64,000 nt of DNA from Candidatus Kaiserbacteria bacterium (GTDB lineage Bacteria > Patescibacteriota > Minisyncoccia > Phycocordibacterales > UBA2100), in assembly GCA_963767115.1 (NCBI GenBank), contig CAVYCR010000003.1, positions 109,377-173,376 on the forward strand, in the 5' to 3' direction. The notes under the pieces are model-generated. The model was not told where the DNA came from and did no database searches. It saw only the letters and a list, made by a program, of their open reading frames with translations. Below are positions 2,689 to 54,762 of the stretch, piece after piece (positions within the stretch are counted from its first letter, which is position 1; each line of letters begins with the position of its first letter). The position numbers and the translations under genes are program-made.

Positions 2689-3718
<1,030 letters not shown>

Positions 3719-6957: not shown

Positions 6958-7029
6958 CTTGACATTTTAAATAATTCTGTCATTTTAATGACAGTTGATA
7001 GCTTAGACCACTACGAAAGGACCGGGATC

Positions 7030-26146: not shown

Positions 26147-28243
26147 ATGCACTTTCATATGTATCGCGCTCTTAGATCTGTTTCGCTTTTAGTCATTTCA
26201 AGTAGCGTCGCGCTTTTTGCACCACTGGCCTTCGCGTACGCGGATGTCTCGGTTTCTATCCAGTCGCTCTCGCCCAGCAACACTGTGACAGTCGGAACGA
26301 CGGTCTCTTTCTCGGTCACGGAGACTGGCTTCACCAACCCGACCTACACGATCACGGACCCGACAAGCGGCAGCAGTATCACGACCAACGACATCAACTC
26401 AAGCGGCAACTTCTCATGGACGCCCGAGAGCATCGACGTGGGTACGCACAGCCTTACGATCACCGTAAACGACGCGCAGGGTGACACTGCAAACACACAG
26501 GAATCTATTACCGTCAATCCGACGCCTACTCTTACCCTAGGCTCGCTTTCGCCGGGAACCTCTATCACTGCCGGGCAGACAGTAAGCTTCGCTGCGACCA
26601 CCAACGGCTTCACCAACCCAACTTTTAGCGTCAGTGATTCGCTCAATGGTTCGTCAGTATCCAACAACGACATCAATCCCTCCACTGGTGCCTTCTCCTG
26701 GACACCGGCAAGCAATCAAACGGGTACGCACACGATCACGATGTATGCGACAGATGCACTCGGACACAGCGCAAACGCAACTGAGACGATCATCGTCGGT
26801 TCGACGCCTGTGGTCGCGATACAATCACTCTCGCCGGGCTCGAGCGTGGGCGTCGGCCAAAACGTGACCTTTACCGCACTTGCATCCAACTTCAACGACC
26901 CTTCGTATACCGTAAGCGACACCTTCGGCAATAGTTCAGTCTCAGACAACAATATCAACTCTTCAGGCCAATTCTCGTGGACACCGGAGACGAGCGACAT
27001 CGGCACGCATACGATCACCGTGACGGTCAACGATGCATCCGGTCATAGTTCGACTGCGACGCAGACGATCACGGTCTCGAGCAGCAGCGTGGTGAGCGGC
27101 ACCGGCGGCGCGACCGTACAAGGTCTTTCGCCCGGCACCAATGTAATAATCGGCCAGCCTGTCTCCTTCACTGTCGCTGCATCCGGCTTCAGTAATCCCG
27201 TCTTTAGCGCGCAAGATTCTTTCTCTGGTTCGACTATGACTGGGAGCGACATCAATTCCGCTGGCTATTTCTCATGGACACCTACCAGCTCTGACACAGG
27301 GACGCACACCATCACTGTCTACGTGAATGACTCTTCGGGCCATACCGGCAATGTGACGCTTCAGCTCACCGTCAATCAGCCAAACATTACCATCACCTCG
27401 ATCAACCCGGGCACGACCGTCCTTGAGAATTCCCTGCTCACCTTCAACGTGACGCCCGCAGGCTTCACCAATCCGACCTACACGCTTTCGGATTCTTTCA
27501 GCGGCACAACGATCAGTACTTCAAACATCAACTCTTCGGGTCAGTTCTCATGGACGGCGCTTGCGAGCCAAGTGGGTACGCATACGATCACCGTCTCGGC
27601 GACCGATGCCTCGGGACACAACACCACGACGCAGCTCGTCATCGACGTGACGGCGAGCGGTACGGCAGTCACGCCGACCACGACAAGCAGCGCTTCCCTG
27701 AGCACGCTCGAGACGGAGCTCGCACAAGCCGAAGCTGCGCTCCAAGCTGCGCAAGGGACGAGCGGATCGTCAGCAACGAGCCAGCTCACCGAGAACCTCT
27801 CTTTCGGCATGACCGACGACCAAGTAACGACACTGCAAAACCTGCTCGCAGCGCACGGCTATTTCTCGGGCACGGCGACGGGCTATTTCGGAGGACAGAC
27901 ACAGGCCGCCGTGGAGAGATTCCAGAGCGCAAACGGCATCAGTCCGATCGGCATCGTGGGCCCTGCGACGCGCGAAGCGCTCAACAGCCTGAGTACCACC
28001 GCGACTGCGAGTACTTCGACCGGTGACGGCTATGTATTCTCCAACTTCATCGGCATGGGTAGCACAGGCACCGACGTGACCGAACTGCAAAAGCGCCTCA
28101 CCGCGCTCGGCTTTTACTCCGGCCCAGTCACCGGCACCTTCGGCTCACTCACCCAGGCGGCGGTCAAGGCATTCCAAGCCGCCCACGGCATCACCCAAGC
28201 CGGCTACGTCGGCCCGGGCACGCGTGCGGCCTTGAATCAGTAA
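26147..28243 (+). CDS. secreted surface protein: signal peptide, six about 100-aa Ig-like repeats, two C-terminal peptidoglycan-binding (PG_binding_1) domains
   Basis: The repeat SLSPGxxVxxGQxVSFxxxxxGFxNPxYxxSDSxxGSSxxxxDINSSGxFSWTPxxxDxGTHTITV occurs six times. The C-terminus has TTLQNLLAAHGYFSGTATGYFGGQTQAAVERFQ and TELQKRLTALGFYSGPVTGTFGSLTQAAVKAFQ. Confidence 0.75.
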   Translation: MHFHMYRALRSVSLLVISSSVALFAPLAFAYADVSVSIQSLSPSNTVTVGTTVSFSVTETGFTNPTYTITDPTSGSSITTNDINSSGNFSWTPESIDVGTHSLTITVNDAQGDTANTQESITVNPTPTLTLGSLSPGTSITAGQTVSFAATTNGFTNPTFSVSDSLNGSSVSNNDINPSTGAFSWTPASNQTGTHTITMYATDALGHSANATETIIVGSTPVVAIQSLSPGSSVGVGQNVTFTALASNFNDPSYTVSDTFGNSSVSDNNINSSGQFSWTPETSDIGTHTITVTVNDASGHSSTATQTITVSSSSVVSGTGGATVQGLSPGTNVIIGQPVSFTVAASGFSNPVFSAQDSFSGSTMTGSDINSAGYFSWTPTSSDTGTHTITVYVNDSSGHTGNVTLQLTVNQPNITITSINPGTTVLENSLLTFNVTPAGFTNPTYTLSDSFSGTTISTSNINSSGQFSWTALASQVGTHTITVSATDASGHNTTTQLVIDVTASGTAVTPTTTSSASLSTLETELAQAEAALQAAQGTSGSSATSQLTENLSFGMTDDQVTTLQNLLAAHGYFSGTATGYFGGQTQAAVERFQSANGISPIGIVGPATREALNSLSTTATASTSTGDGYVFSNFIGMGSTGTDVTELQKRLTALGFYSGPVTGTFGSLTQAAVKAFQAAHGITQAGYVGPGTRAALNQ

Positions 28244-36160: not shown

Positions 36161-36538
36161 ATGAACGAGCCTAGCATTAGCAGCGGACTCAGAATCCTTA
36201 TCGTTGACGACAACGAGCTGGCAGCGCATGGGCTACAAAAACTCCTCGGTTATCGCGGCCACTTCGTTGACCTCGCCTATGATGGCGAGGGTGCGCTGAA
36301 GGTCGCCGCCGAAGCGTCATATGATGTGATTGTGCTCGACATCGGGCTTCCCGACATGAACGGATACGAGGTCGCGCGCCGCCTGCGCGCGGGAGGTTCA
36401 CCCGCAACCCTTATTGCACTCACCGGCTACGGCCAAGACGAAGACAAGGCGCTCGCTTTCGAGTCTGGTTTCAATCATCATCTGACCAAACCCGTCGGTC
36501 TCGTCGACATCGAAGCAGTGCTGCCGCGACAAACCTAG
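36161..36538 (+). CDS. single-domain response regulator (receiver only)
   Basis: ILIVDDNELAAHGL...VIVLDIGLPDMNGYEV...LIALTGYG...KPV is a REC domain. Confidence 0.8.
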   Translation: MNEPSISSGLRILIVDDNELAAHGLQKLLGYRGHFVDLAYDGEGALKVAAEASYDVIVLDIGLPDMNGYEVARRLRAGGSPATLIALTGYGQDEDKALAFESGFNHHLTKPVGLVDIEAVLPRQT

Positions 36539-36700: not shown

Positions 36701-39700
36701 ATGAAATCAAGATTCAATCTCCTGATCATAACAGGAACGCTCTTACTCTCTTTTCCACTCATTGCTTCAGCAACCTCCTACCTCCCCGGCCAAACACTCA
36801 ACCCAAGCTGTACGCCGACTGACCCTACGTGTGTCGTCGTCCCCAATACTACAAGCAGCAACTTTACTGCAACATCAAGTACCGCAACATCTACCTTTGC
36901 CGGCAACGTCACGGTCTCGGGCAACGTCTCGGTTGGCGGCCTCTCCGGTATTCTCCGTGCCGTTGAAGGAGTGATCACGAGTACGCTGGTCAATCTCTCT
37001 TCTGATGTTACCGGCGTGCTTGGCATCATCAATGGCGGTACCGGCATATCGTCTGCTCCGGGGTATGGACAGGTGCTGGTGGGCAATGCGCTTGGCGGTT
37101 ATACGCTCATGTCGACGTCGTCACTGGGTATTGCGGGTGCATCGAGTCAGTGGACGATTGGCGGTTCGAACATCTATTTCAATACGGGCAATATCGGTAT
37201 CGGGACCACCAGTCCTTCGGGATTGCTAACACTCGATTCTTCGTCGGCGACCGGTACCATCCTGCGTATGAGCAACACCTCGGTAGGCGGTCACGTCTAC
37301 GACTTCCTGGAGACTGGCTCAGCCAATACCGGCGGTGCAGGACGGCTCGACTTCTTTGACAACACGGTAGGCGCGGCGCGGCTATCGATTGCTGCCAATG
37401 GGAATGTGGGGGTGGGCACCACGAGCCCGTTTACAAATTTTGGTGTTTCCGGAAGCGGATATTTCGGGGGGAATCTTGCGGCCGCCACTCTATCAGTACC
37501 AGGTCTCACAACACTTGGAAATGCAACAACAACGAACCTTGAGGTTACTGGAGGTCTAAGTTTTACGGGCAATCAGGTTTATTCTGGCTCTGGTACTTCG
37601 AGTCCAGCAAATTCTTTTATATTCATGAAGGGTTCTCTCTCTGGAGTTGCAGCCCCAGCGGGGGACGGGATCATAAGCCCTTTTCATGTTTTTATTCCCG
37701 CAGATACAGTCAATACTAATGGAAACGGAAGCCTCATTGGATTCTCAATTGAAGAAGCTGCGAGTACTGGCCATGCGGGTGCACGCATCGCGTCACAGAG
37801 TTATTTGGCTGTTGTCGGAACACCTTCAACTACACCCGGTTCGGGTGGTTATGTAGGAGAAGCAGCCTTAACAAGAATCAGTGCAAACTTGGATGGAACC
37901 GCCGGCGCCTACTCCAATTACAAAGGCTCTACCTTTGGTGCCAACTCGGACATTTATCTCACTTCAGGTGCGACGTTTCTTGGTTTGGTAAATGCGGAAG
38001 AGTTTGATGTAACGATTCCATCCGGAGATTCAACTGCCGATAAATTTGGCATATCCATCGTGAAAGGTTCAAATGACGCAGTGCGCGGGACGTACGATGA
38101 CTCAGCGATAAGTATCAATGACCAGGATAATGCAAATACCCAAGGGTGGCATTACGGGCTTTCCTTCGGCTCCTATGCACATCAATGGGCATTTGCCACC
38201 GACAGCACGCTCATCATGGCTCAGACACGGCAGACAGGAGCCTCGAGCCCAGACGTAGCATTGAATGGTATCGACTTTCGAAACGTAACATTTGGAGGGT
38301 TGGCGTTTGCTTCTCCAGGATTCTCTGTTGATCCCTCGGGGAACATTGTTGGAAACGATTTTTATGCTTCTTCGACGAATTTTATGACGTTCGGCGGCAT
38401 CGGCGCAGGTACTAGAATCATTGCAGACGGAACCTCCACAAATATCACTTCTTCTCCCAGCGCGACTGCCTTTGGGTACGACGCTCTCGAATACGCATCA
38501 TCTACATCAGGTAATGGAAGCAGTGCTTTCGGATTCGAAGCGCTTCTCGGCAGTTTCTCTCTTGGCAACACGGGAAACAATACAGCTCTGGGGTATAAAT
38601 CGCTAATTGTCGACAGTAGTGGTGCTTCCAATACCGGGGTTGGTGCCAATACATTGCTTGGGAATACGACAGGGTCTTCAAACGTAGCCTTAGGGCAAGG
38701 TGCTCTTTTTGCAAATACTTCGGGCAATCAAAATATCTCGATTGGGCAGTCTTCACTCGTTGGCAACACATCAGGGTCAGGTAATATAGCCATGGGTACG
38801 GGCGCGCTTCGTGGTCTCGCGGGGAGCAGTGCAAACGACAACATTGGAATTGGTACAAATACTGCTACAACATCGACTTCTGGCTCCAACAACATCGCCA
38901 TCGGTTATGATATCGGCCTGCCCAACCTCACCGGCTCGAACCAACTAGATATTGGCAATTTGATTTTCGGCACCGGTGTAAGCGGCCAGGGTATAGCCGT
39001 TTCAGGTAATGTAGGTATTGGCACTTCGTCCCCGCAGGCTACGCTCGAAGTGTGGGGACCAGATACTGCATCTACAAGTGCCTTTACGGTCGCCAATAGC
39101 GCATCGACGACCGAATTCACGGTCTATGATACCGGCAATGCAGTCCTTGCTGGTAGCCTCACACAGAACTCGGATCAAAGGCTCAAGACCAACATCTCGG
39201 ATCTTGATGGCTCGAGCTCGCTTGCAGAGATTAATGCCTTAAACCCCGTCACTTTCAATTGGATCGACCCCGAGAAGAGTTCCGTACCGCAATTTGGCTT
39301 CATCGCGCAGCAGGTAGAGAACGTCTTCCCGAACCTTGTTGCGACGACTTCCCCGACCGCGCTCACACCTGACGGCACGCTCTCATTGAATTACATTGAT
39401 CTCATTTCGCCGATCATTGCGGCGATACAGCAGTTGGATAGAGATCTGACAACGCTCAGCTCAACAGTTGATGGTTTTGCGCAGTCGATAACATCTATGG
39501 TCGGCAATTTCGGCCAAGTTAATACGCAAGAATTGTGCGTTCAAGGCACCTGTGTAACCGGCGCCCAGCTCAAAGCGCTTCTCGCATCCGCTCATCAGTC
39601 TGCGAGTTCATCCGGTTCATCGCCTGGTGATCCGACCGATGCCACTGACACTTCGGATTCGACAAACTCACCGCAATCGCCTGTCATTCAGGTCAATGGC

Positions 39701-40000
39701 GCCAATCCTGCCACGATCGAGGTCGGCGCCATCTACAACGATCTCGGTGCGACCATCACCGGTCCGCAGGCTGATCTCAATCTGGGAATCGCGACCTATC
39801 TCAACGGTGTGGCGATGAATCCGATACAGCTCGACACCACGCAAACGGCGACTGATACGATCGATTACGTCGTGACTGATCAAAGTGGATTGACGAGCAC
39901 CTCGACGCGCACGGTCGTCATACAGGCGCCGATCACTCCGGTTGCGACCGCATCTACCACGACCGCCACGAGCTCATCAGCGACAAGCACTACGCCATAG
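36701..40000 (+). CDS. giant secreted fibre protein 1 (1099 aa): signal peptide, N-terminal module shared with the 41003 gene, collar repeats, C-terminal peptidase-S74 intramolecular-chaperone domain plus Ig-like (DUF5011-type) domain
   Basis: Signal peptide MKSRFNLLIITGTLLLSFPLIASA. Collar repeats read NTxxGxxALxxNTxGxxN.. The sequence ...LTQNSDQRLKTNISDLDGSSSLAEINALNPVTFNWIDPEKSSVPQFGFIAQQVENVFPNLV matches the S74 auto-chaperone, with the predicted S|D autocleavage site at 39172/39173. The C-terminal VIQVNGANPATIEVGAIYNDLGATITGP...DTIDYVVTDQSGLTSTSTRTVVIQ is Ig-like. Confidence 0.8.
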   Translation: MKSRFNLLIITGTLLLSFPLIASATSYLPGQTLNPSCTPTDPTCVVVPNTTSSNFTATSSTATSTFAGNVTVSGNVSVGGLSGILRAVEGVITSTLVNLSSDVTGVLGIINGGTGISSAPGYGQVLVGNALGGYTLMSTSSLGIAGASSQWTIGGSNIYFNTGNIGIGTTSPSGLLTLDSSSATGTILRMSNTSVGGHVYDFLETGSANTGGAGRLDFFDNTVGAARLSIAANGNVGVGTTSPFTNFGVSGSGYFGGNLAAATLSVPGLTTLGNATTTNLEVTGGLSFTGNQVYSGSGTSSPANSFIFMKGSLSGVAAPAGDGIISPFHVFIPADTVNTNGNGSLIGFSIEEAASTGHAGARIASQSYLAVVGTPSTTPGSGGYVGEAALTRISANLDGTAGAYSNYKGSTFGANSDIYLTSGATFLGLVNAEEFDVTIPSGDSTADKFGISIVKGSNDAVRGTYDDSAISINDQDNANTQGWHYGLSFGSYAHQWAFATDSTLIMAQTRQTGASSPDVALNGIDFRNVTFGGLAFASPGFSVDPSGNIVGNDFYASSTNFMTFGGIGAGTRIIADGTSTNITSSPSATAFGYDALEYASSTSGNGSSAFGFEALLGSFSLGNTGNNTALGYKSLIVDSSGASNTGVGANTLLGNTTGSSNVALGQGALFANTSGNQNISIGQSSLVGNTSGSGNIAMGTGALRGLAGSSANDNIGIGTNTATTSTSGSNNIAIGYDIGLPNLTGSNQLDIGNLIFGTGVSGQGIAVSGNVGIGTSSPQATLEVWGPDTASTSAFTVANSASTTEFTVYDTGNAVLAGSLTQNSDQRLKTNISDLDGSSSLAEINALNPVTFNWIDPEKSSVPQFGFIAQQVENVFPNLVATTSPTALTPDGTLSLNYIDLISPIIAAIQQLDRDLTTLSSTVDGFAQSITSMVGNFGQVNTQELCVQGTCVTGAQLKALLASAHQSASSSGSSPGDPTDATDTSDSTNSPQSPVIQVNGANPATIEVGAIYNDLGATITGPQADLNLGIATYLNGVAMNPIQLDTTQTATDTIDYVVTDQSGLTSTSTRTVVIQAPITPVATASTTTATSSSATSTTP

Positions 40001-40013
40001 TATAATCTTTCCT

Positions 40014-40925
40014 ATGTATCAACGCACCGCCGCGATGCTTGCCCTCGGACTTTCCCTCTTCGCCATCACCACATCCGTGGCTTTCGCATCCACCGGCACC
40101 ATTGTTTCACCCGATCAATACGCATGGGATGACAACGGCGGGTATGTGAATTGGCTTGCAGTCGGCGGCAATGTCACTGTCACCGATACCGGACTCACCG
40201 GATATATCTGGTCTGCAGGATTCGGCTGGATCAACCTCTCACCGACCGACGGCGGCGTCACCAACGTGGGTGGAGTTCTCGGCGGCTATGCATGGGGTAC
40301 CAATACCGGCTGGATCAATTTCACCGGGGTGACGATCGACAGTAATGGCCTCTTTCATGGTCACACTGTCGCGCAATCCACCTTCGGCACGATGACGTTT
40401 GACTGTACCTACTGCGATGTTGTCACTTCGTGGACAGGATCTTTTGTGGCGCCGCCGACTACTCCTACACCATCACCATCTCCTATCACTGGGGCCAACG
40501 GCATGCCGGCGCAAAGCGGCACGCTTTCATACGGCTACCAAGCGACAACTACAATTACTGGTAGTGCGTCGACACAAGTAGCTACAACTACCATCACAGC
40601 ACAAACATCGACTAACGTATCGCCATCATTGCGACCAACGACCCCGCCACCATCCGTTGAGCCGACGTCCGCGCCGCCAAAGGCTTCAGCATATGTATCA
40701 CAACATATTTCAAATCAGCACGTGGTGACTGCAGTAGTTTCTCAAGCAAACATGCCGACAGTCGGCCCCTCGACAAACGGAGGCGCTCCGACGCCAGCGA
40801 CCAATACCATCGAGCCATCTCCACAGCACGCTCCGGCGCAATCAACAACGCCGCTTCCTCCTACGTGCTCACTATTCACCTGCTGGATTCAGGGACTTTT
40901 TGATTTCTTGAAGTCGATTTTTTGA
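40014..40925 (+). CDS. secreted repeat protein (GYxWSxxxGWINF/L repeats, Pro/Thr-rich C-terminus)
   Basis: Signal peptide MYQRTAAMLALGLSLFAITTSVAFA. The repeated units are GYIWSAGFGWINL and GYAWGTNTGWINF. It lies between the two giant genes. Confidence 0.55.
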   Translation: MYQRTAAMLALGLSLFAITTSVAFASTGTIVSPDQYAWDDNGGYVNWLAVGGNVTVTDTGLTGYIWSAGFGWINLSPTDGGVTNVGGVLGGYAWGTNTGWINFTGVTIDSNGLFHGHTVAQSTFGTMTFDCTYCDVVTSWTGSFVAPPTTPTPSPSPITGANGMPAQSGTLSYGYQATTTITGSASTQVATTTITAQTSTNVSPSLRPTTPPPSVEPTSAPPKASAYVSQHISNQHVVTAVVSQANMPTVGPSTNGGAPTPATNTIEPSPQHAPAQSTTPLPPTCSLFTCWIQGLFDFLKSIF

Positions 40926-41002
40926 GTAATACACATAATCTTTTCAGCATTTAAATAGTGGCCTTGAATTTCTTGCTACAATGCAGGAACGTTAAATATT
41001 GC

Positions 41003-44000
41003 ATGAAATCCAGGTTATCAGTTATTGTCGGATTTGCTCTCTTACTTGCAGCTCCATTCGCCGCTTCAGCAACCTCCTATTTGCCAGGTCAAACCCTCAA
41101 CCCAAGCTGTACACCGACTGATCCTACGTGTATCGTCGTTCCCAACACGACGAGTAGCAGCTTCACGGCGACGTCTTCTTCGGCGACATCGACGTTTGCC
41201 GGCAGCGTCACTGTCTCAGGTAATGTAGCTATCGGTGGTCTCAGCGGCATTCTCCGTGCTGTTGCTGGTGTGATCACAAACACGCTCGTCAATCTCAGCT
41301 CAGACGTGACAGGTGTACTGAGCATCATCAACGGTGGCACCGGCATATCATCCGCTCCGAGTTACGGCCAAGTCCTCGTCGGCAACGGGAGTGGTGGATA
41401 CACGCTGACGTCGACATCGTCCTTGGGAGTGGCGGCGTCGGGTGCAGTATGGGGCAGCATTGTGGGATCGATTGCTAGTCAGGCGGATTTGCAGAGTGCG
41501 CTTGGTGCGAAGCTCGGACTCGCTGCCTGGTACGCAACCACTACCGACGCCTTAGCACAAGGCTCAACCAACAAATATTTTGCCAATTCACTCGCGCAAG
41601 CGGCTATTTCGGTCTCCGGTTCCCCACTCACCTATACATCCGGTGTGATCGGCATCAACCAAGCAAGCGCCAGTCAGAACGGTTACCTCGCTTCTACTGA
41701 CTGGTCAAATTTCAACGGGAAACTCGCATCGTCATCACTCTCCGCCTCGTATCCGCTTGCGTACAACTCTTCAACGGGAGTCTTTAGTCTCGGCTTCGGT
41801 ACAACGACTGCCAACACTTTCTCTTCTCTCCAAACGTTCAAAGGTGGGGCTTCTACCTCTGCACTCACCCTTGGCACGGGCGCAGGCATTTTGCAAACGA
41901 ACGCTGCTGGCGTGGTATCAGCGGGCACTGTGAGCCTGACTTCTCAAGTAGCAGGCACGCTCGCTCAAAGCAACGGTGGCACCGGATTCAATTCATATAC
42001 TGCCGGTGCCATCCTCTATGCAGACGGCTCGGGCAATCTTCAGGAGCTTCCTGCCGGCAGTAACGGCCAAGTCCTCAAGGTCGCGGCAGGATTACCGGGC
42101 TGGGGAGTTGACCTTACCTCCGGTGGCGGGGGTAGTAATGACGGCATCTTTGCAACGACGAGCAGCGGTGTCGTGTATCAACTCAACACCTCAAATCCCG
42201 TCGTCATCGGTTCGAATTCCACCTCGACTGCCAACAGCATCTTTGAAGTCTCAGGGCAACAATATATTTCAACCAAGCTCGGCATCGCGACCACTACTCC
42301 AAGTACCAATCTCTCGGTTGCAGGCTCAGGCTACTTTACCGGAGGCCTCGGCATCGGTACCTTGAATACTGCTCCGGGTTCACTTGTCGTCACGGGCAAC
42401 ACCACGCTTGGCAGCGCAACCTCCACCAATTTCTTCTCGACAGTTGCCAACTTCACCAGCGCTATCGCTACGACTTTTAATGCTTCGCTTGCTAATATCG
42501 CTGGTTTGAGCGTGACGAATTCGACTACTACTAACGCAACGACGACCAATCTCTACGCGCAAAGCGCATCGATCGGATCATTGGGTCTCTCTTCTGCACT
42601 TGGTATCGGGAGTGGGGGCACAGGACTTGCTTCTGGACCCGCCTATGGCCAAGTACTGCTCGGCAATGGAAGTGGCGGATACACGCTGACGTCGACATCA
42701 TCACTTGGAATAACGAGCGGCGTTTGGGGCAATATCACCGGCACACTTGCCAATCAGACCGATTTGCAAAGTGCACTCAATCTCAAATTGTCATCGTCAT
42801 CACTCTCCGCCACCTATCCGCTCTCATACAATAATAGTAGCGGTATTTTCAGTATTGGCTTCGGCACCACGACGAGTAACTCTTGGGCTGGAACGCAAAC
42901 ATTTAACAATATTTCTGCAACGAATGCGACGACGAGTAATTTTGGCATCACTGGTATTACCAATGGCGTTCTTGCGACGAATGGAAACGGTTCGGTGATT
43001 GCGACAACAAGTATTGGTGCCAACTACATCAACGGCATCCTGGGTACGATCAATGGCACAAACTTTTCACGCGGCGGATCAATTACACTGGGAGGAGCAT
43101 CAACGACACTGCTTTCTGATGCCAACACTTTTTCGGGTAGTAATATATTCTCAGCACTTAGCACATTCACAACCGGAATTCTTTCGAATGCCTCATCGAC
43201 ATTCACTTCGATCTTGAACGTGAATACAGTTAATCTCTCCAACGCACTCGGTATCGGGAGTGGCGGCACAGGACTTGCCTCCGCCCCTACGTACGGTCAA
43301 TTATTGCTCGGCAACGGAAGTGGCGGCTATACCCTCACATCGACCTCATCGCTCGGCATTGCAAACGGTTTCCAGTGGGCAACGAATGGTTCAGCTATTT
43401 CATACAGTACGGGTAATGTGGGTATTGGTACGAGTTCTCCCGGCGCAGCATTGTCAGTAAGTGGCAATACAGCACTTGCCGGCACCCTTTCGATCCAGAC
43501 GTCAGGCACCTCAACACTTACCGACCTTCAGGGTACGTCACAGTATGTCTTCGGCTCATGGGCTCCGCGTTTATGGGAACTTGCAGATGGTACGTCGCTC
43601 AATCCAGTAACCACCACTGGTGCGACCTTCAAGATTTCCCGCACCGAAGCAGTGGCGAGCAGCACCTGTAACAACAACAATGTTGATAATGAATGCAACG
43701 CGGCATTGCTTGTCGAATCTAATGCAAACGCGATCGCCGCATCTTCCTCCCAACAAACCGACGCAATTTTTGCCGGGGCAAAAGGACAACCGATCGGAAC
43801 TGACGTCGTAGGACTTTCAGCTATTGGCGACGTAGTGGGCGCTGGCACCGGTATCGGTACAGGCGCGTATCTTGAGGGCCGCCGCGATACCGCGACAGGC
43901 CTTGCAAAAGGCCTCGAGGTGCGCGTCACCAACATCACCAGCAAAGCGGGCACCTACTATAACGCTGGCGAATCGGACACCGAAGGCATCTGGGTCACCG

Positions 44001-47000
44001 GTAATTCAAGCAACGGACTTCCGATAGGCGCCGGCATGTCATTTGGTGCCATTAACGGGAGCGAATTCCTGACTGGTATCGGATTTACAACAAACAGCGT
44101 TGCGTCTTCCACCATTCGTGATGACAGTTCTGCATCCACATCAATCCAGATCAACGGAAATCACACCAATGCGATCAATATAGCGAGTAATGGTACCTAC
44201 GCTTTAACTACTGGAGCAAATTCAGGAAACGTCGGCATCGGCACAGCCAGCCCCGGTTATGAATTGACGGTCTCAACGACATCAGGAACGCAAGCGTATT
44301 TTGGAAGCACGGGCTCGCATAACGGTGGCATCATCATCGACAACGCCGCCGGTGGATTCCAGTCGGTCATTAATTTACTGAATGCCGGTACACAAATATT
44401 CCAAATCGGAAAGCAGACGGACAATTCATTCTTCATGTATGACGCATCGAACACGCGGAATTTTTTAACCTACTCACCGACCTCACAAAATCTCATACTC
44501 AATTCAGCGGCAGTAGGAAATGTCGGCATTGGTACGACCACTCCCGGATCGCTTCTCTCTGTCGGCGGCGTTGCAAACTTCAGCACAGCCACCAGCACGT
44601 TTTATTCTTCAGGCGGCATCAATCTTACGAACGGCTGTTTTGCATTAAATGGAACCTGCATAACAGGCGGTGGTGGTTCTAACTATTGGACCTCGTCAGC
44701 GGGGACGCTCTATAACAACACCGGCGCGAGCATCGGAATCAACAATGCATCCCCTTCTTACCCCCTCGACGTCGGAGGCTTTATCAACACCAGCGCACTC
44801 ACTGGTGGATTCAAGCAGGGCGGCACCACGCTCTTGTACGCAAGTACTACAAACCTTTCAACCTTTGTCGGCTTCAATGCGGGAGCGAATGTCCTCACGA
44901 TCGCTACCTCAAGCTCGCTCACCTCCGGCGCATACAACACGGTACTTGGCTACCAAGCACTCCAGAACGCGACCTCATCCCAGAACGTTGCAATCGGCTA
45001 CCAGGCACTGCAGGGAAACTCCAGCTCGGGCGATAGCTCTGGCAACCAGAACGTGGGTGTCGGCTATCAGTCACTGCGATACAACGCGGGTGGATCCGAC
45101 AACAGCGCACTCGGCTATATAGCGCTCCTTAACAACACCAGCGGCACGCTCAACACCGCACTCGGCTACCAAGCGCTCACCGGCAACACGGGCGGCTCAA
45201 ACAACCTCGCCATCGGTCCCTTCGCGCTTGATGGGAATCAGACTGGTGTGAGCAACGTTGCCGTCGGCAGAAATGCGATGCTCAATGAACTGAACGGATC
45301 GAGTAACGTCGCAGTCGGTATGGGCGCCGGAGACGGTGTCGCGTCAAACTCATTCTCCAACAACGTGCTTCTCGGCTATTACTCCGGATTCGGCCTTTCG
45401 ACGGGCGGTAATAACATACTACTTGGGTATCAGGCCGCCTCCACCACTGCAACAGGCGGAAACAACATCGCACTCGGCTACAACATCGATCTGCCGTCCG
45501 CAAACGGCTCCAACCAACTCGATATCGGCAACCTGATCTACGGCACGGGGATCAATGGAACTCTGAACACTGTCTCGACGGGCAACATCGGCATCGGCGA
45601 ATCCGCTCCCCTTGCAAAACTTGATATAGCGAACTCTTCAGCAACGAGCAGCCTTCTTTTGCGCGGTGGCAATAACCAGACTTCATCCACTACCAACCAG
45701 ATCGTCTTCAGCTACGCAGGCACTGCCAACTACGAGAGCGCCCTCAAGACTCGCAGCAATAGTGCCGGCAACAGTGGCAACGACATTGACTTCTACCTGT
45801 GGAACACCACCGACGGAGCAGCGAGCATTGCCAACAACCCCGCATTCACCATCGATGGCGCGGGCGGTATCGCGGTTGGGCAAGGATACGCGGGTGCCGG
45901 CGGGATCACTCCGCCTGCCAACGGCGCGATCATACAAGGAAATGTGGGGATCGGCACCACGTCACCTTCTTCTGCACTCTCACTGAATGGCAACGCACTT
46001 TTTGGCGGTAACCTCAATGTCATTGGCAATATTACTGGCAACTATCCCTTCAGCCAATACGGCACCGGCGCAGTAGCAGAACCGATCATCACTACCGTCG
46101 GCCGCGTGATCTACGCAGATCAATACGGCACGCATCACGACGGTATCACCGACGACACGACGGCAATCCAAAACGCACTCAACGCTGCAAGCTCTGAAGG
46201 CGGCGGCACAGTTTTCATCGGTCCGTACCGCTACCTCATCAACAGTGCGAACCTCACGATCCCGTCGCAAGTCACCCTCTCAGGCGAGGCATGGCCGGGA
46301 GTACCTTCAGCTGGGAACTTCGGTACCAAGCCGTACACGCTGGTGCTCAACCCTACCTACACGATCATCGGTAGTGACAACGCAGGCCTCCAAGACCTGC
46401 TGATCTTGAAAAGCGGAATGACCTCGCCGACATCGACGCGCTCCAGCATGAACTTGGTCGCGAGCTACGCGGGCACCGCCATTACCGGAGCAGGTAATGA
46501 CTTCAGCGTGCAGAACGTGACAGTTGGCGGCTTCAATACGTGCTTCTACTCAAGCGGGTACGCGAGAATGGTACTCAACCAGTTCTTCGGCGACTGTACC
46601 AACGGCCTCGTCGCGGACAACGTCCACGATATCGGCAAGCTACACAATATCGAGTTCTGGTCGTTCCTCTCGGTAGGTTTCGGTGGTGCCTATGTCGTCG
46701 CGTACCCTGTATCTAATGTTTCCAACAGTAGTGGCAACTATGATGTCACAATCCCGACTAACGTCTTCCAGACTGGTGACACGGTCTGGGTCTCGGGTGT
46801 CGGTGGTGCCGTAGGTGCTAACGGTAAATGGATCGCGACAGTCGCTGGTCCCAACGACCTAATTCTCCAGAACTCTGCGGTCTCCCCCTCAGTTGTCGGC
46901 ACCACGACCGCAAGCTCATACGAAGTATCCGTCGCAACCACAACCGCGCTCTATGCCGGGGAAGGCGTGAGCGGTACCGGCATTCCCTCGGGCGACACTG

Positions 47001-50000
47001 TCGCGCAAGTTTCATCGCCCGCTTCAGTGATCTGGCTTACCCAAGCCGCAACAGCAAGTGGTACGAACGTGACGTTGAGCTTTACCAACGGCACCTACAC
47101 GAGCGGTGGTAACGTCTATATAGATACGACGATCCGCAATGGAACTGCCTACACAATTACTCATAGTGAGGGGCTGGAATGCAACGACTGCTCCGATATC
47201 GGCCACCAAATAGGCTTCTATCTCGGCGCGGGAGCGAGCGGCATCAATATTATTAATGGAGTTTCTGACTATGATGGAAATCTCCAAGATCCTACCGCGA
47301 TCAACCTTGAGGTCACCAGCACCTCGACTGCTTCGGATTGGAATGGTGGTTGGATGGATTCAAAGAATACTTCAATCTATAACGCTAACGCGAGTGGCCC
47401 TGCGACAACGGTGTCGGGGGTAAATATTTCTACCGAATCAGGCGGTACCACGGCTGACGTCGAAAGCGGTCGCCTCATTATATCCAACTCGCAGCAGTGG
47501 AACGCGAGCGATATCTTGGTGGGCTCAGGGACCGGCAGCCTCACCATGAATGGTGACGACATGGTCCACACGACTATGTTGCCGGCTAATTCCGCAACGC
47601 TCGCGGAACTGTCGATCGATGGTAGTACGCAGCTTAAGTCCAACTCAGTTGACCAGGGTCTTGCCTCGTTCTCTTCGCCTCTCAACGGCAATACGGGAGC
47701 AGGCACCGGTGCGCTGACCCTCTATCTCGGCACCACCACGACCGGCTTCGAGACCGCTTTCGGCAACAACGCACTCCAAAACGCCACGTCATCCTCCGAT
47801 GACGTCGCCGTCGGCTATGGTGCGCTCACCGGAAGTGCCACGATCTCGAGTGTTGGCTCCAATACCGCAATCGGCTGGAACACGCTCAACCTCAATACCT
47901 CGGGACACGGCAATGCTGCGCTCGGCGCAGGTGCCTTGTATCGTAACACCTCTGGCAGTTTCAACATCGGCATTGGTAATTCCGCACTCGCTTTTAACAC
48001 GACCGGCTCATCCAATGTCGGCATCGGCGCATCTGCTTTGTGGTTCAACACGGGATCTCAAAACACGGCGATCGGCTATCAAGCCGGCGAAGGCGTCAAT
48101 GGCAGTTCTTCCGGCGGCAGCAATACATTCTTCGGATACAATACCGGCTTCGGCGACACGACCGGCGCTTCAAACCTCTATATCGGCAACAACGTCGCTT
48201 CAACCAGCGCGACTGGCTCTTTCAACGTAGCGCTCGGCTACGATATCGCCCTGCCAAGCGTGAACGGCTCCAATCAACTCGACATCGGCAATCTCCTCTT
48301 CGGCACCAATTTGACGCAAGGCACTACGGTCTCGACGGGTAATTTCGGCATCGGTACTTCGAGTCCCGGATCGATCTTCTCTGTAGGAGGTGTGGGCAAC
48401 TGGACCACGGGAACGTCGACCATGTACAGCTCTGGCGGCATCAACCTCTCTGGCGGCTGTTTCGCGGTAAACGGTACGTGCATTACCACCAGTAGTGGTG
48501 GCGGTGGAAGTTCTGCGTCGACGACATTACTCACAGATAACGACACCTTCTCCGGCGCCGAATTCTTCACCAAACCCATAAATACCTCAGGCACGACAGG
48601 AGGATACGACATCGACGGAAACCTCATCCTGCAAGCTTCTTCAACACTCGCCTCGACGCTCGTCGGTCAGAATGCAGGTTCGTCACTCACTACGTCATTC
48701 GGCAACGTCGCTCTCGGCTACGGTGCACTTCAGTACGCCACCTCGAGTCCTGACAACGTTGCAATTGGCTACAACGCACTGAACGCATTCACCTTCGCCA
48801 TTCCTGCGAATCCCGGCGCAGTGGGAGATATGACCGCGGTCGGGTATAACGCACTCGCGAGTTCCACCAACGGCTACATCAACACCGCAATCGGCTACGA
48901 ATCGATGTATGAGAGCACATCAACGGTCGAGAACACCTGCGTGGGATGGACTTCTTGCGGAGACCTGCAAAATCAGTTTTTGTCGACCGCCGGCAGCTAC
49001 AACGTTGGCGTTGGTGCTGGCGCTTTGTGGCACGATACCACTGGGGACAACAACGTGTCGGTTGGTTCTGACAACATGCGCAATACCGTCGGCGCGCAGG
49101 GCGACGTCGCCGTCGGCGAGGGATCGATCAGGAATGGCGTGCCGAATGCTGACATTGGTATCGGCGTCTATGCGCTGCGCGGCCAGGGTTGGTACGATGG
49201 CAACGCCGCAACTTCTACCGAGGCCGACGACATTGCCATCGGTACCTATGCAATGTCGACGACGAGTCTGACCACAGCACAGTACGACACGGCGGTAGGT
49301 CACTACTCCTCGCAGAACTTGATTAATGGTAACTACAACGTCGCATTCGGTGCCTTTACCTTGCAGAATGCCACCTCGTCCAACAACAACGTCGCCATCG
49401 GCTACAACGCACTCTTGGGAAGCAGTACAGTCTCGAGCGTCGGCAACAACACAGCTATCGGATACAACTCACTCGAAAATGATGCTTCCGGTGCAAGCAA
49501 TACAGCCCTTGGTTATTCATCTCTCGCCAGCAACACTTCCGGCGGCAACAACGTGGGTCTCGGCTATGGAGCGCTGACTGCGAATCTTGCAGGCAACAAC
49601 AACGTCGCGATCGGTCTCAATTCGCTTGCTAACGACAATACTTCAGGAAGTACCGGTATCGGCGCTTCATCACTCTTATACAGTACCGGTGCGGGCAACA
49701 CTGCAGTGGGCTTCCTCGCAGGTCAGGGTGTAAACGGTAGTTCTTCAGGCACTTTCAATTCACTTTTCGGCTACCAGAGCGGTTTTGGACTTACAACCGG
49801 CGCTGCAAACATTCTCCTCGGTACTAATGCTGCATCGACCACGGCATCAGGCTCATTCAATATCGCGCTCGGTTATGACGTCGCACTGCCAAGTCAGAAC
49901 GGCTCCAACCAGCTCGACATCGGCAACTTGATCTACGGCACCGGCATCAATGGCCAAGGGAGCAATGTCTCGACCGGCAATATCGGTATTGGCACCACGA

Positions 50001-50941
50001 CCTCATATTCACGTCTTGAAGTCTGGGGCCCTGATTTCTCAGCTTCTACGACCGCTTTTCTCGTCTCAAATGCCGCTTCGACAACCGAGTTCGCCGTCCT
50101 CGACAACGGCAATGCGACGCTTGCCGGCAACCTGATTCAAAACTCTGACCAACGCCTCAAGACCAACATCACCGACCTCGATGGTTCAAGTTCGCTCGCC
50201 GAAATCAATGCGCTGAACCCGGTAACTTTCAACTGGATCGATCCGGCCAAAAGCTCAGTGCCGCAGTTCGGCTTCATTGCCCAGCAGGTGGAAGGAGTGT
50301 TCCCCAACCTAGTCTCCACAACCTCACCAACTGCCCTTACACCAGATGGCACGCTTTCACTCAACTACATTGATCTCGTATCTCCTATTGTGGCAGCCAT
50401 TCAAGAACTCTCGCGGGAGATTGCTTCAATCGAGAATACTGTTTCCGGATTTGCGACGATATTTCATACCAACGAGCTTTGCGTTGGCTCCACATGCGTG
50501 ACACCCGCACAGTTCGAGGCGATGGTTGCTGCGGCAAATCAGACAAACCAATCAGGAGAATCCTCCCAGAGTTCAAGTAGTTCGGACAATTCCTCAAATG
50601 CAACCGACACTCCGCCCGTCATAGAAATCAACGGCGCCAACCCTGCAACTATTCAAGTCGGCGCGACATACAACGACCTCGGTGCCACCATCATCGGACC
50701 AAGTGCTGATACGAACCTCGATATTACGACCTATCTCAACGGTATCGCTCTGTCCCCCATCACGATTGATACTTCAGCTGCTGCTACAGACACGATCGAC
50801 TACGTCGTGACTGATCAGAACGGCCTTACGAGTACATCCACACGCACCGTGATCATACAATCATTGAATACGATCGACGCTTCTACTTCAGTAGCCGACG
50901 ACGCAACAAGTACATCGGATACTTCCTCGACCAATCAATAA
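41003..50941 (+). CDS. giant secreted fibre protein 2 (about 3312 aa): signal peptide, N-terminal module paralogous to 36701, GGYTLTSTSSLG-type repeats, YadA-head/tail-fibre-like collar repeats, internal pectate-lyase-fold (tailspike-like) domain, C-terminal peptidase-S74 chaperone domain plus Ig-like domain
   Basis: Start chosen at ATG 41003 (MKSRLSVIVGFALLLAAPFAASA); the listed GTG at 40958 is also possible. The pectate-lyase-3-like segment is VIYADQYGTHHDGITDDTTAIQNALNAASSEGGGTVFIGPYRYLI (about 46090-46700). The S74 segment is ...LIQNSDQRLKTNITDLDGSSSLAEINALNPVTFNWIDPAKSSVPQFGFIAQQVEGVFPNLV, with predicted cleavage at 50146/50147. The C-terminal Ig module is near-identical to that of protein 1. 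Confidence 0.8.
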   Translation: MKSRLSVIVGFALLLAAPFAASATSYLPGQTLNPSCTPTDPTCIVVPNTTSSSFTATSSSATSTFAGSVTVSGNVAIGGLSGILRAVAGVITNTLVNLSSDVTGVLSIINGGTGISSAPSYGQVLVGNGSGGYTLTSTSSLGVAASGAVWGSIVGSIASQADLQSALGAKLGLAAWYATTTDALAQGSTNKYFANSLAQAAISVSGSPLTYTSGVIGINQASASQNGYLASTDWSNFNGKLASSSLSASYPLAYNSSTGVFSLGFGTTTANTFSSLQTFKGGASTSALTLGTGAGILQTNAAGVVSAGTVSLTSQVAGTLAQSNGGTGFNSYTAGAILYADGSGNLQELPAGSNGQVLKVAAGLPGWGVDLTSGGGGSNDGIFATTSSGVVYQLNTSNPVVIGSNSTSTANSIFEVSGQQYISTKLGIATTTPSTNLSVAGSGYFTGGLGIGTLNTAPGSLVVTGNTTLGSATSTNFFSTVANFTSAIATTFNASLANIAGLSVTNSTTTNATTTNLYAQSASIGSLGLSSALGIGSGGTGLASGPAYGQVLLGNGSGGYTLTSTSSLGITSGVWGNITGTLANQTDLQSALNLKLSSSSLSATYPLSYNNSSGIFSIGFGTTTSNSWAGTQTFNNISATNATTSNFGITGITNGVLATNGNGSVIATTSIGANYINGILGTINGTNFSRGGSITLGGASTTLLSDANTFSGSNIFSALSTFTTGILSNASSTFTSILNVNTVNLSNALGIGSGGTGLASAPTYGQLLLGNGSGGYTLTSTSSLGIANGFQWATNGSAISYSTGNVGIGTSSPGAALSVSGNTALAGTLSIQTSGTSTLTDLQGTSQYVFGSWAPRLWELADGTSLNPVTTTGATFKISRTEAVASSTCNNNNVDNECNAALLVESNANAIAASSSQQTDAIFAGAKGQPIGTDVVGLSAIGDVVGAGTGIGTGAYLEGRRDTATGLAKGLEVRVTNITSKAGTYYNAGESDTEGIWVTGNSSNGLPIGAGMSFGAINGSEFLTGIGFTTNSVASSTIRDDSSASTSIQINGNHTNAINIASNGTYALTTGANSGNVGIGTASPGYELTVSTTSGTQAYFGSTGSHNGGIIIDNAAGGFQSVINLLNAGTQIFQIGKQTDNSFFMYDASNTRNFLTYSPTSQNLILNSAAVGNVGIGTTTPGSLLSVGGVANFSTATSTFYSSGGINLTNGCFALNGTCITGGGGSNYWTSSAGTLYNNTGASIGINNASPSYPLDVGGFINTSALTGGFKQGGTTLLYASTTNLSTFVGFNAGANVLTIATSSSLTSGAYNTVLGYQALQNATSSQNVAIGYQALQGNSSSGDSSGNQNVGVGYQSLRYNAGGSDNSALGYIALLNNTSGTLNTALGYQALTGNTGGSNNLAIGPFALDGNQTGVSNVAVGRNAMLNELNGSSNVAVGMGAGDGVASNSFSNNVLLGYYSGFGLSTGGNNILLGYQAASTTATGGNNIALGYNIDLPSANGSNQLDIGNLIYGTGINGTLNTVSTGNIGIGESAPLAKLDIANSSATSSLLLRGGNNQTSSTTNQIVFSYAGTANYESALKTRSNSAGNSGNDIDFYLWNTTDGAASIANNPAFTIDGAGGIAVGQGYAGAGGITPPANGAIIQGNVGIGTTSPSSALSLNGNALFGGNLNVIGNITGNYPFSQYGTGAVAEPIITTVGRVIYADQYGTHHDGITDDTTAIQNALNAASSEGGGTVFIGPYRYLINSANLTIPSQVTLSGEAWPGVPSAGNFGTKPYTLVLNPTYTIIGSDNAGLQDLLILKSGMTSPTSTRSSMNLVASYAGTAITGAGNDFSVQNVTVGGFNTCFYSSGYARMVLNQFFGDCTNGLVADNVHDIGKLHNIEFWSFLSVGFGGAYVVAYPVSNVSNSSGNYDVTIPTNVFQTGDTVWVSGVGGAVGANGKWIATVAGPNDLILQNSAVSPSVVGTTTASSYEVSVATTTALYAGEGVSGTGIPSGDTVAQVSSPASVIWLTQAATASGTNVTLSFTNGTYTSGGNVYIDTTIRNGTAYTITHSEGLECNDCSDIGHQIGFYLGAGASGINIINGVSDYDGNLQDPTAINLEVTSTSTASDWNGGWMDSKNTSIYNANASGPATTVSGVNISTESGGTTADVESGRLIISNSQQWNASDILVGSGTGSLTMNGDDMVHTTMLPANSATLAELSIDGSTQLKSNSVDQGLASFSSPLNGNTGAGTGALTLYLGTTTTGFETAFGNNALQNATSSSDDVAVGYGALTGSATISSVGSNTAIGWNTLNLNTSGHGNAALGAGALYRNTSGSFNIGIGNSALAFNTTGSSNVGIGASALWFNTGSQNTAIGYQAGEGVNGSSSGGSNTFFGYNTGFGDTTGASNLYIGNNVASTSATGSFNVALGYDIALPSVNGSNQLDIGNLLFGTNLTQGTTVSTGNFGIGTSSPGSIFSVGGVGNWTTGTSTMYSSGGINLSGGCFAVNGTCITTSSGGGGSSASTTLLTDNDTFSGAEFFTKPINTSGTTGGYDIDGNLILQASSTLASTLVGQNAGSSLTTSFGNVALGYGALQYATSSPDNVAIGYNALNAFTFAIPANPGAVGDMTAVGYNALASSTNGYINTAIGYESMYESTSTVENTCVGWTSCGDLQNQFLSTAGSYNVGVGAGALWHDTTGDNNVSVGSDNMRNTVGAQGDVAVGEGSIRNGVPNADIGIGVYALRGQGWYDGNAATSTEADDIAIGTYAMSTTSLTTAQYDTAVGHYSSQNLINGNYNVAFGAFTLQNATSSNNNVAIGYNALLGSSTVSSVGNNTAIGYNSLENDASGASNTALGYSSLASNTSGGNNVGLGYGALTANLAGNNNVAIGLNSLANDNTSGSTGIGASSLLYSTGAGNTAVGFLAGQGVNGSSSGTFNSLFGYQSGFGLTTGAANILLGTNAASTTASGSFNIALGYDVALPSQNGSNQLDIGNLIYGTGINGQGSNVSTGNIGIGTTTSYSRLEVWGPDFSASTTAFLVSNAASTTEFAVLDNGNATLAGNLIQNSDQRLKTNITDLDGSSSLAEINALNPVTFNWIDPAKSSVPQFGFIAQQVEGVFPNLVSTTSPTALTPDGTLSLNYIDLVSPIVAAIQELSREIASIENTVSGFATIFHTNELCVGSTCVTPAQFEAMVAAANQTNQSGESSQSSSSSDNSSNATDTPPVIEINGANPATIQVGATYNDLGATIIGPSADTNLDITTYLNGIALSPITIDTSAAATDTIDYVVTDQNGLTSTSTRTVIIQSLNTIDASTSVADDATSTSDTSSTNQ

Positions 50942-50970
50942 AGGTTTAGAAACTGAATCCACTTGTGTCA

Positions 50971-50999
50971 AAAACCACCCTAATAACGGGTGGTTTTTG
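50971..50999. terminator. bidirectional intrinsic terminator between the giant gene and 51029..52234
   Basis: aaaaccaccc-taataac-gggtggttttt forms a GC stem with A-run and T-run flanks. Confidence 0.8.
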
Positions 51000-54638: not shown

Positions 54639-54750
54639 GCGGAAATGACAAAGGTATTTTTTCGTTCTGCGGGACGCATAGCGCCCTCACGCCCCTGCGG
54701 GGCTGCGGGTTCGGTCCTCGAACGAAAAAATACCTTTGTCATTTCCGCTC
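54637..54750. repeat. long perfect palindromic element: 31-bp stems (54637-54667 / 54720-54750), 52-nt loop, directly after the hemQ stop
   Basis: gagcggaaatgacaaaggtattttttcgttc and its exact reverse complement flank the loop. The loop contains the mini-hairpin cccctgcgggg. Confidence 0.85.
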
Positions 54751-54762
54751 TCACGTTCGAGT

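Follow-up and report, generated by a model that had tools for sequence, protein, structure and literature searches.

Do proteins of a cellular bacterium cut themselves at a chaperone domain best known from phage fibres, and what would be the use of the long piece that such a cut sets free? The question is raised by two paralogous genes, here called A and B, in a stretch of 64,000 nucleotides (nt) from Candidatus Kaiserbacteria bacterium (GenBank assembly GCA_963767115.1, contig CAVYCR010000003.1, positions 109,377 to 173,376 of the forward strand), the whole of which is referred to as the window. Gene A (36701-40000, + strand) is an intact open reading frame (ORF) of 1099 amino acids (aa), also called on public contigs, and encodes a predicted secreted fibre protein ending in a cassette with a Peptidase_S74 (ICA) domain. 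Gene B (41003-50941, +), its paralogue and likewise a predicted secreted fibre protein, is an ORF of 3312 aa from the ATG at 41003, the start used in the public gene call; an alternative GTG at 40958 would give 3327 aa. A called gene of 303 aa, the partner gene (40014-40925, +), lies between them. Judging from the motif, a structure model and analogy with characterised homologues, we consider it likely that A and B self-cleave by the standard ICA mechanism.

In phage fibres, S74/ICA domains serve quality control in a way that is well understood. They are also known in bacterial adhesive fibres, the mosaic adhesive trimer (MAT) fibres of Bdellovibrio, and in MyRF, and recognition of the motif itself is routine annotation. 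The interest of A and B lies in the long C-terminal fragment (C-fragment), which is unusual by comparison with phages yet typical of a large uncharacterised bacterial family. If the extension behind the chaperone tethers, sorts or acts after release, this would be a new use of ICA cleavage in bacteria, and it could bear on how ultrasmall episymbiotic bacteria mount attachment fibres; if the extension is only a longer pro-peptide, the finding is ordinary.

The S74 motif and predicted catalytic dyad in A and B

A first reading of the letters (the sequence-only reading) had noticed the motif QNSDQRLKTNI(S/T)DL in both proteins. It is present in both ORFs where that reading placed it, and nt 39172/39173 in A and 50146/50147 in B are arithmetically the right coordinates for the boundary between Ser and Asp. 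Protein A reads ...LTQNSDQRLKTNISDLDG..., with Ser824 encoded by tcg (39170-39172) and Asp825 by gat (39173-39175), and protein B reads ...LIQNSDQRLKTNITDLDG..., with the Ser codon at 50144-50146 (residue 3048 from the ATG start, 3063 from the GTG start); the longer context of the motif is ...LAGSLTQNSDQRLKTNISDLDG in A and ...LAGNLIQNSDQRLKTNITDLDG in B. The match is far beyond chance in both proteins, because the Pfam profile PF13884 (Peptidase_S74) scores 63.7 bits in A (E = 1.9e-17) and 60.4 bits in B (E = 2.1e-16) against a cut-off of 22, the alignment covering 57 of the 58 profile positions (1-57) and Ser falling on the first of them in both cases.

An alignment to characterised S74 domains had been named as a check on the predicted dyad, and in it the catalytic Ser and Lys stand at equivalent positions in MyRF, the T5-type fibre, GA-1 gp12, 8jov and 6f45. 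When PDB sequences were searched with phmmer and with profiles, Ser824 and Lys829 fell on position 587 (Ser, deposited as Ala) and K592 of MyRF in 7dc3, and also on SDERLK of the tail fibre 8jov and SSDRRIK of 6f45. A wider ICA profile from 40 diverse relatives, cellular as well as viral, also brings in 8hqz, the T5-type L-shaped fibre (GTSGIEYK), and 3gud, the GA-1 neck-appendage chaperone (SDERHK). The string SDxRLKxNI, which the sequence-only reading cited for endosialidase and T5 domains alike, is sound as a general family consensus but does not describe the T5-type fibre, where TSGIEYK shares only Ser and Lys(+5) with it. Lys829 of A (39185-39187, +), the counterpart of MyRF K592 and of Lys(+5) in the other solved ICA domains, is the predicted general base of the Ser-Lys dyad; the predicted catalytic Lys of B (Ser+5; 50159-50161, +) was assigned from the sequence, the Pfam match and the comparison of A with B.

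The dyad of MyRF and the supporting residues of its reaction centre (R590, Y615, Y617, I637, and Q639) have been tested by mutagenesis (PMC8326128). In the alignment R590 corresponds to R827 of A, Y615 and Y617 to Phe and Trp of VTFNW, and I637 and Q639 to Ile and Gln of GFIAQQV in the window proteins, while K671 is not conserved, Tyr standing at that position in the window protein. Ser, Asp, and Arg do not vary across 32 aligned family members, conservation of Lys reaches at least 90%, and divergent relatives with SDITLK, SIRSTK, SLRYK or SDQRQK keep Ser and Lys(+5). Conservation counts from an ICA set that had been selected by regular expression are circular for S, D, K, G, A, and Q and were not used as evidence.

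The fold was examined in an AlphaFold2 monomer model of the last 296 residues of A (mean predicted local distance difference test score, pLDDT, of 69). The ICA core occupies query residues 23-131 (pLDDT 73-86) and consists of an alpha/beta part followed by a long helix (96-131). Foldseek gives the MyRF ICA domain 7dc3 as the best PDB match of the model (E = 1e-6; target-normalised template modelling score 0.6), and endoNF 3gw6 is matched weakly (E = 0.03). By sequence, dyad, supporting residues and modelled fold, A and B are members of the S74/ICA family.

Position of the predicted cut and size of the products

The cut had been placed between Ser and Asp by the sequence-only reading. Characterised homologues are instead cut before Ser. 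In MyRF the cut lies between P586 and S587, as determined by mass spectrometry (PMC8326128). T5 pb1 is cut between Thr1263 and Ser1264, with Ser leaving with the chaperone, and K1F in the same manner, phi29 being a less certain exception (PMC4690869). The mature tip of Bd3182 ends at A781, before S782 (PMC10769870), and the GA-1 chaperone chain 3gud_A as deposited starts at Ser (SDERHK). Because these homologues are cut on the N-terminal side of Ser, the predicted scissile bonds are Asn-Ser, 3 nt upstream of the sites first proposed. In A the bond would be N823-S824 (nt 39169/39170; the two codons span 39167-39172, +), with Ser824 as predicted nucleophile from its profile position 1, the alignments and the rule of cutting before Ser; by the same reasoning it would be the matching Asn-Ser bond of B at nt 50143/50144 (codons 50141-50146, +).

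Cleavage at these bonds is predicted to leave mature fibres of approximately 799 residues (A) and 3024 residues (B), and acidic C-fragments of 276 aa and 28.4 kDa (A) and 265 aa and 27.4 kDa (B). The figure of about 270 residues beyond the S74 domain, given by the sequence-only reading, has to be lowered: 275 residues (A) and 264 residues (B) follow Ser, about 111 of which are the ICA domain itself, and the truly additional residues number about 165 in A and 155 in B when the ICA end is set by the AlphaFold2 model. Its description of the piece is borne out, in that PF13884 is followed by PF16403 in both proteins and any fragment released would carry the chaperone together with an Ig-like domain.

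The cassette has the same order of parts in both proteins. The ICA domain of A comprises residues 824-934 (39170-39502, +; Pfam match 824-880), with the long helix of the model at its end; that of B (50144-50470, +; Pfam match 3063-3119 in GTG numbering, end approximate) is about 92% identical to it over the core. After a short spacer of low model confidence (residues 935-943 of A) follows a beta-hairpin with two Cys (Cys946 and Cys951) and a helix, residues 944-968 of A (ELCVQGTCVTGAQLKALLASA; 39530-39604, +), for which the model has strands at 141-144 and 147-150 and a helix at 151-165 in query numbering. In the family alignment C143 of this numbering is invariant and C148 is at least 90% conserved. 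The corresponding hairpin and helix of B (ELCVGSTCVTPAQFEAMVAAA; 50474-50548, +) were located from the sequence and the comparison with A. An acidic linker rich in Ser, Thr, and Asp (residues 969-990 of A; 39605-39670, +) is predicted to be disordered (pLDDT <50; mean pairwise identity 0.23) and leads to the Ig-like domain, Bact_surface_Ig-like (PF16403), at residues 991-1075 of A (39671-39925, +; Pfam E = 7.6e-7 over residues 996-1073; pLDDT 80-93) and at 50621-50857 (+) in B (E = 1.2e-8, residues 3222-3300 from GTG). Its Foldseek matches are Big_3, SraP, Rib, and SusE-like domains. A Ser/Thr tail closes the cassette of A behind the Ig-like domain. Neither hydropathy nor the model, which lacks a helix of membrane-spanning type, indicates a transmembrane segment in the post-ICA region of A or B, and no known sorting motif was found there; the maximum of 19-residue Kyte-Doolittle hydropathy after Ser is 1.2 in A and 1.17 in B.

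The extension in cellular and viral relatives

More than 366 proteins matched in a word-indexed search, nearly all of them with PF13884 and PF16403, and the extension alone as query retrieved 136 representatives of 50%-identity clusters at E<=1e-30. Among the best 140 extension matches, 75 have the Ser..Lys motif and the hairpin at the end of proteins of 363-1958 aa, with C-fragments of 241-310 aa. Carriers include Adlerbacteria, Paceibacterota, Bradyrhizobium sp. LTSP885, and B. manausense BR 3351, and further Xanthobacteraceae and other alphaproteobacterial metagenome-assembled genomes (MAGs) on contigs of up to 4 Mb. Short matches to the Ig-like domain only and broken C-fragments (e.g. L027, L011, L031) were considered as free-standing fragments and rejected; they look like truncated or frameshifted gene calls.

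C-fragments of cellular relatives range from 72 to 463 aa. Those of Bdellovibrionales and Bacteroidota have 133-150 aa and most of those of Patescibacteria 170-300 aa; S74 proteins of the latter regularly continue after the ICA domain with the same two-Cys hairpin and helix and a low-complexity tail. Within this tail the window's subfamily has the Ig-like domain as an insert, most Patescibacteria relatives being without it. Viral C-fragments measure 88-126 aa (median 95) in 60 of 63 IMG/VR examples, the other three having about 198 aa. Phage records match over the ICA part only (231 of 50,697), and none covers the extension; in the best 80 IMG/VR loci, from a scan with two patterns of which one was drawn from the Ig-like domain, the matches are likewise confined to the ICA part and the hairpin-Ig extension was not found. 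The fragment, roughly three times the length of its phage counterparts, is thus unusually long, as the sequence-only reading had said, when set against viral fibres (88-126 aa) and Bd3182 (141 aa), but not within its own recurrent, large family, and MyRF offers a precedent. A full-text literature search returned no paper that ties S74 domains to Patescibacteria or describes a post-ICA extension, and a large conserved family with about 165 extra residues on the presumably self-cleaved piece, present in Patescibacteria of soil as well as in Bradyrhizobium and relatives, is undescribed in the literature searched.

Mean pairwise identity within the family is highest in the Ig-like domain (0.68), followed by the ICA core (0.62), the hairpin-helix (0.50), and the linkers (0.23-0.27), and the fibre parts upstream of the last ~60 residues before Ser are unrelated between family members. 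Such constancy of the Ig-like domain argues for some function, be it before or after release. The last residue is Gln in 80 of 120 family proteins, whereas Gln makes up 2.6% of the 30 residues before it; long C-fragments of genomic relatives end in Gln in 26 of 58 cases, short ones in 1 of 23. It may be a terminal recognition signal. B ends in ...STNQ (Gln codon CAA, 50936-50938) and A in ...STTP.

Two variants of the layout were seen in Patescibacteria. Tandem S74 motifs occur in one reading frame at two loci (L032, at 10037 and 10514; L041, at 10016 and 10496), and in other fibre ORFs (cases include L029, L030, and L079) domains are inserted between the ICA domain and the Cys hairpin, giving C-fragments of up to 463 aa.

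Comparison with known S74 and ICA systems

The closest known system is the S74 subgroup of the Bdellovibrio MAT fibres, whose member Bd3182 of Bdellovibrio bacteriovorus self-processes, a step blocked by the substitution S782A (Caulton et al., 2024, PMC10769870). Like A and B, these are cellular proteins with a signal peptide, a conserved domain directly behind it, a mosaic body forming a very long fibre that is trimeric (as we infer for A and B), and a C-terminal S74 chaperone with an SDxxxK motif. The repetitive body with a motif of the capping-loop type is likewise found in A and B, and the profile of the region before Ser matches the solved MAT structures 8ond (Bd2133, E = 3.5e-8), 8oml, 8ojn, and 8ol4 by way of ...GNVGIGTxxPxxxLxV... 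The hallmark of the MAT family is a signal peptide followed by a conserved beta-rich N-terminal domain of about 130 aa (PMC10769870). We considered filing A and B as MAT fibres and decided against it, because their N-terminal domain shows no BLAST similarity to this invariant feature. There are other differences as well. The C-fragment of Bd3182 has 141 aa and is chaperone only, whereas those of A and B, with 276 and 265 aa, add the hairpin-helix, linker, Ig-like domain and tail; A and B have a conserved partner gene alongside, unlike the Bdellovibrio MAT fibres; and the latter are displayed on the surface of a predator and have a part in recognising prey, whereas the window host, an uncultured organism, is not a known predator.

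Phage intramolecular chaperone domains were reportedly treated by Schwarzer in 2007 and by Schulz in 2010. Those of K1F endoNF, T5 pb1, and GA-1 gp12 have the Ser-Lys(+5) dyad, GxIAQ and the long C-terminal coiled-coil helix in common with A and B and stand at the end of a trimeric fibre, but phage fibres are without a signal peptide, whereas A and B have a predicted one. A typical S74 domain is also the C-terminal end of its protein, with a released piece of about 90-150 aa (133 aa for the T5 chaperone fragment; Garcia-Doval, 2015, PMC4690869). A and B depart from this pattern, which is a typical feature and not a strict criterion, and MyRF departs from it too.

MyRF/MrfA, eukaryotic membrane-bound transcription factors, resemble A and B in that a further region follows the ICA domain and leaves with the C-terminal product. 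MyRF is moreover the best structural match of the ICA model of A (7dc3, E = 1e-6), in which S587, R590, K592, Y615, Y617, I637, and Q639 all have counterparts. Its C-terminal product is long, with an anchoring region behind the ICA domain, and stays behind after the cut (PMC3742440). The region downstream of the MyRF ICA domain consists of a transmembrane helix and a lumenal domain, whereas A and B have no hydrophobic segment that could serve as such an anchor; the N-terminal cargo is a DNA-binding domain in MyRF and a fibre in A and B.

Proposed mechanism and alternative explanations

We propose that a cellular bacterium exports the paralogues A and B by the Sec route as trimeric fibres, adhesins or enzymes, whose build resembles that of phage tail fibres and Bdellovibrio MAT fibres. 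After export, three ICA domains would join through their long C-terminal helices and act as the nucleus from which the trimeric beta-structure upstream of them folds. In a correctly formed trimer, Ser824 (A) or Ser3048 (B) would then be activated by Lys(+5) and attack the Asn-Ser bond on its own N-terminal side, and the cut would yield the mature fibre and the acidic C-fragment comprising ICA domain, hairpin-helix, linker, Ig-like domain and tail. The extension would be a portion of the pro-region typical of the lineage, with a role in assembly or in transient tethering to the producer's surface and with a constant ligand, and would not be a variable receptor-binding tip. Given that conservation peaks in the Ig-like domain, whereas the bodies of the fibres are entirely different from member to member, a constant ligand such as the self surface or an assembly factor appears to fit better than a variable tip; the same conservation would fit alike a helper before cleavage, a tether released by cleavage and an active product after it. 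Several observations weigh against this proposal. The pLDDT falls below 50 around Ser in the AlphaFold2 model, and since it is a monomer, active-site geometry and contacts with the upstream 'sensor' lie beyond its reach. The role given to the extension is drawn from conservation only, and we found no experiment on A, B or any extension-bearing member. In BLASTP of the N-terminal domain against S74 fibre ORFs of Bdellovibrionales and Pseudobdellovibrio (L063 and L043) only the GNVGIGT repeats were matched, a result of BLAST alone that leaves room for remote homology.

The other explanations accept or deny the cut and differ in what they make of the extension. Together with its cut between Ser and Asp, the sequence-only reading had suggested that the released chaperone-plus-Ig fragment acts as a soluble lectin or signal. 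Conservation is indeed highest in the Ig-like domain (0.68), its fold resembles the adhesin- or carbohydrate-associated SraP, Rib, Big_3, and SusE-like domains, related Ig-like domains stand in 11-37 tandem copies in giant adhesin-like proteins, and the ICA coiled coil would hold three copies together in a trivalent particle, by extension of the MyRF work (PMC8326128). We nevertheless regard an active released product as unlikely: a cut between Ser and Asp conflicts with mass spectrometry and crystal data for MyRF, T5, K1F, and Bd3182 and with the start of 3gud_A, there is no sign that the fragment persists or acts once freed, and since most Patescibacteria relatives have the hairpin and a low-complexity tail without an Ig-like domain, this domain would be an optional insert in an older extension and not its reason. 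A distinctly unlikely arrangement, which if true would be a bacterial counterpart of the MyRF logic, is that the post-ICA extension holds the C-terminus of the pro-fibre at the producer's surface and autocleavage sets the distal end loose or passes the fibre on to an anchor at the N-terminus. It could draw on the anchoring region behind the MyRF ICA domain and the product that stays behind (PMC3742440), on the terminal Gln, which is tied to long fragments (80 of 120 family proteins have it) and resembles a terminal recognition signal, on low-complexity tails of Ser, Thr, Pro, and Glu that resemble wall-spanning spacers, and on the conserved envelope-anchored partner gene adjoining the fibre genes. 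However, the post-ICA part has neither a transmembrane segment (maximum hydropathy 1.2) nor a known sorting motif, protein A terminates in Pro and not in Gln, the partner gene in the fetched loci tracks the N-terminal domain and not the Ig-like domain, and no enzyme recognising a terminal Gln was identified. We give equally little credence to a wider form of this idea, in which the extension would be a new C-terminal tethering or sorting module of Patescibacteria-type fibres, S74 cleavage the switch for release or hand-over, and the fibre-plus-partner unit would have moved from Patescibacteria to Xanthobacteraceae on mobile elements.

If the S74 domain no longer cleaved, it would be a permanent trimerisation knob, with three Ig-like domains as the distal receptor-binding tip. 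Non-S74 MAT fibres have a beta-sandwich tip in the place of the chaperone (PMC10769870), and the Ig-like domain stands at the far end of the molecule in the model; yet the Ser, Arg, Lys, aromatic, and IAQ residues of the reaction centre are all kept and nearly invariant, and receptor-binding tips are usually variable, whereas here the Ig-like domain is most constant and the fibre bodies vary. A non-cleaving knob is therefore very unlikely in our judgement. Tail-fibre genes of a prophage or tailocin might be suspected, given that the ICA domain is best known from phage fibres, that 231 phage records and many IMG/VR contigs match, and that the homologous pair in Bradyrhizobium lies beside Replic_Relax, a primase-like zinc-finger protein and a large serine recombinase. 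Against this stand the N-terminal signal peptides of both proteins, housekeeping neighbours without any capsid, tail or terminase gene found in the window, and the lack of the hairpin-Ig extension on any phage or viral contig searched; the signal peptides and the neighbours led us to reject a prophage origin, which must be counted as highly improbable.

Gene organization and fibre bodies

Both proteins start with typical Sec signal peptides, as predicted from their N-termini. The signal peptide of A (MKSRFNLLIITGTLLLSFPLIASA, followed by T; 36701-36772, +) was read from the sequence and is predicted only; its 19-residue Kyte-Doolittle hydropathy peaks at 1.95. Directly after the signal peptide, A and B share a conserved N-terminal domain of about 125 aa that begins SYLPGQTLNPSCTPTDPTC (36773-37150, + in A). 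It is 79% identical between A and B, as are their first 150 aa, and it is common to the fibre genes of Bradyrhizobium, Adlerbacteria, and Paceibacterota. The last ~530 aa of A and B are 59% identical and the middle parts differ. Repeats of the form GNVGIGTxxPxxxLEV lie upstream of Ser in the fibre proteins. NCBIfam gives no match for either protein.

The middle of B contains the start of a pectate-lyase-like domain of tailspike type (46118-46330, +; PF12708, E = 3e-8, 34.2 bits against a cut-off of 27). There are also two internal copies in B (approximately residues 1455-1530 and 2370-2460) of the segment that precedes S74 (...SNQLDIGNLIYGTGI...GNIGIG...), without an S74 domain behind them, which gives the impression of several fibre modules strung together.

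Directly 3' of the stop codon of B lies a stable hairpin with a T-rich run (50969-50999, +; RNA fold -18.7 kcal/mol, z = -4.4), and none of 200 shuffled sequences was equally stable. It is probably the terminator of a unit consisting of A, the partner gene and B, although a consensus terminator scan missed it. The promoter scan gave fewer promoter-like sites than shuffled sequence. A stand-alone response-regulator receiver gene (36161-36538, +) ends 162 bp upstream of gene A and may or may not regulate the fibre unit.

The partner gene

In the partner protein a signal peptide is followed by an all-beta head that contains three GY(I/A)W..GWIN(L/F) repeats; a spacer rich in Pro and Thr then leads to a hydrophobic helix at the C-terminus. 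The head, modelled with high confidence, finds no structural match in PDB or BFVD. It is 64-79% identical to the products of genes beside S74 fibre genes of Bradyrhizobium, Adlerbacteria, and Paceibacterota, and weaker copies stand beside S74 genes in other Patescibacteria; in all, at least 12 loci of different phyla, Bradyrhizobium and Patescibacteria among them, have the partner gene adjoining S74 fibre genes. Among 275 homologues the C-terminal parts vary, with PG_binding_1, SLH, SH3, and dockerin-like modules on the same head. Because in the fetched loci the partner gene co-occurs with the fibre N-terminal domain (and not with the Ig domain), we suspect that its product is a docking site for the fibre base.

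Two cultured strains, Bradyrhizobium sp. LTSP885 (L006) and B. manausense BR 3351 (L010), have the same fibre-partner pair, with the N-terminal domain and the C-terminal cassette, and their partner heads are 68-79% identical to that of the window. Around the pair, a 20-kb stretch with a G+C content of about 56% carries Replic_Relax, a primase-like zinc-finger gene and a large serine recombinase. This points to transfer of the fibre-partner pair between Patescibacteria-like bacteria and Xanthobacteraceae on a mobile element.

Genomic surroundings

The neighbours of the fibre unit in the window encode RRF, DNA polymerase III delta', Def, Fmt, MreB, histidine kinases, a response regulator, a short-chain dehydrogenase, UppS, ABC transporters, and HemC/HemD/HemE, and no capsid, tail or terminase genes were found among them. 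A tRNA-Asn at 6885-6957 (6885-6958 by ARAGORN) is the sole Rfam match in the whole window. A protein of 698 aa (26147-28243, +) has several Ig-like domains (Big_9 and He_PIG) and two C-terminal PG_binding_1 domains and is another envelope-anchored surface protein. A run of haem-synthesis genes (52353-55767, +) encodes HemC, HemD, a chlorite-dismutase-family protein, and HemE; haem synthesis would be unexpected if the host is a Patescibacterium. RRF (513-1064, -) is 68% identical to that of the unclassified MAG BP5.bin44 and 53% identical to that of an Adlerbacteria MAG, these being the nearest among the fetched loci.

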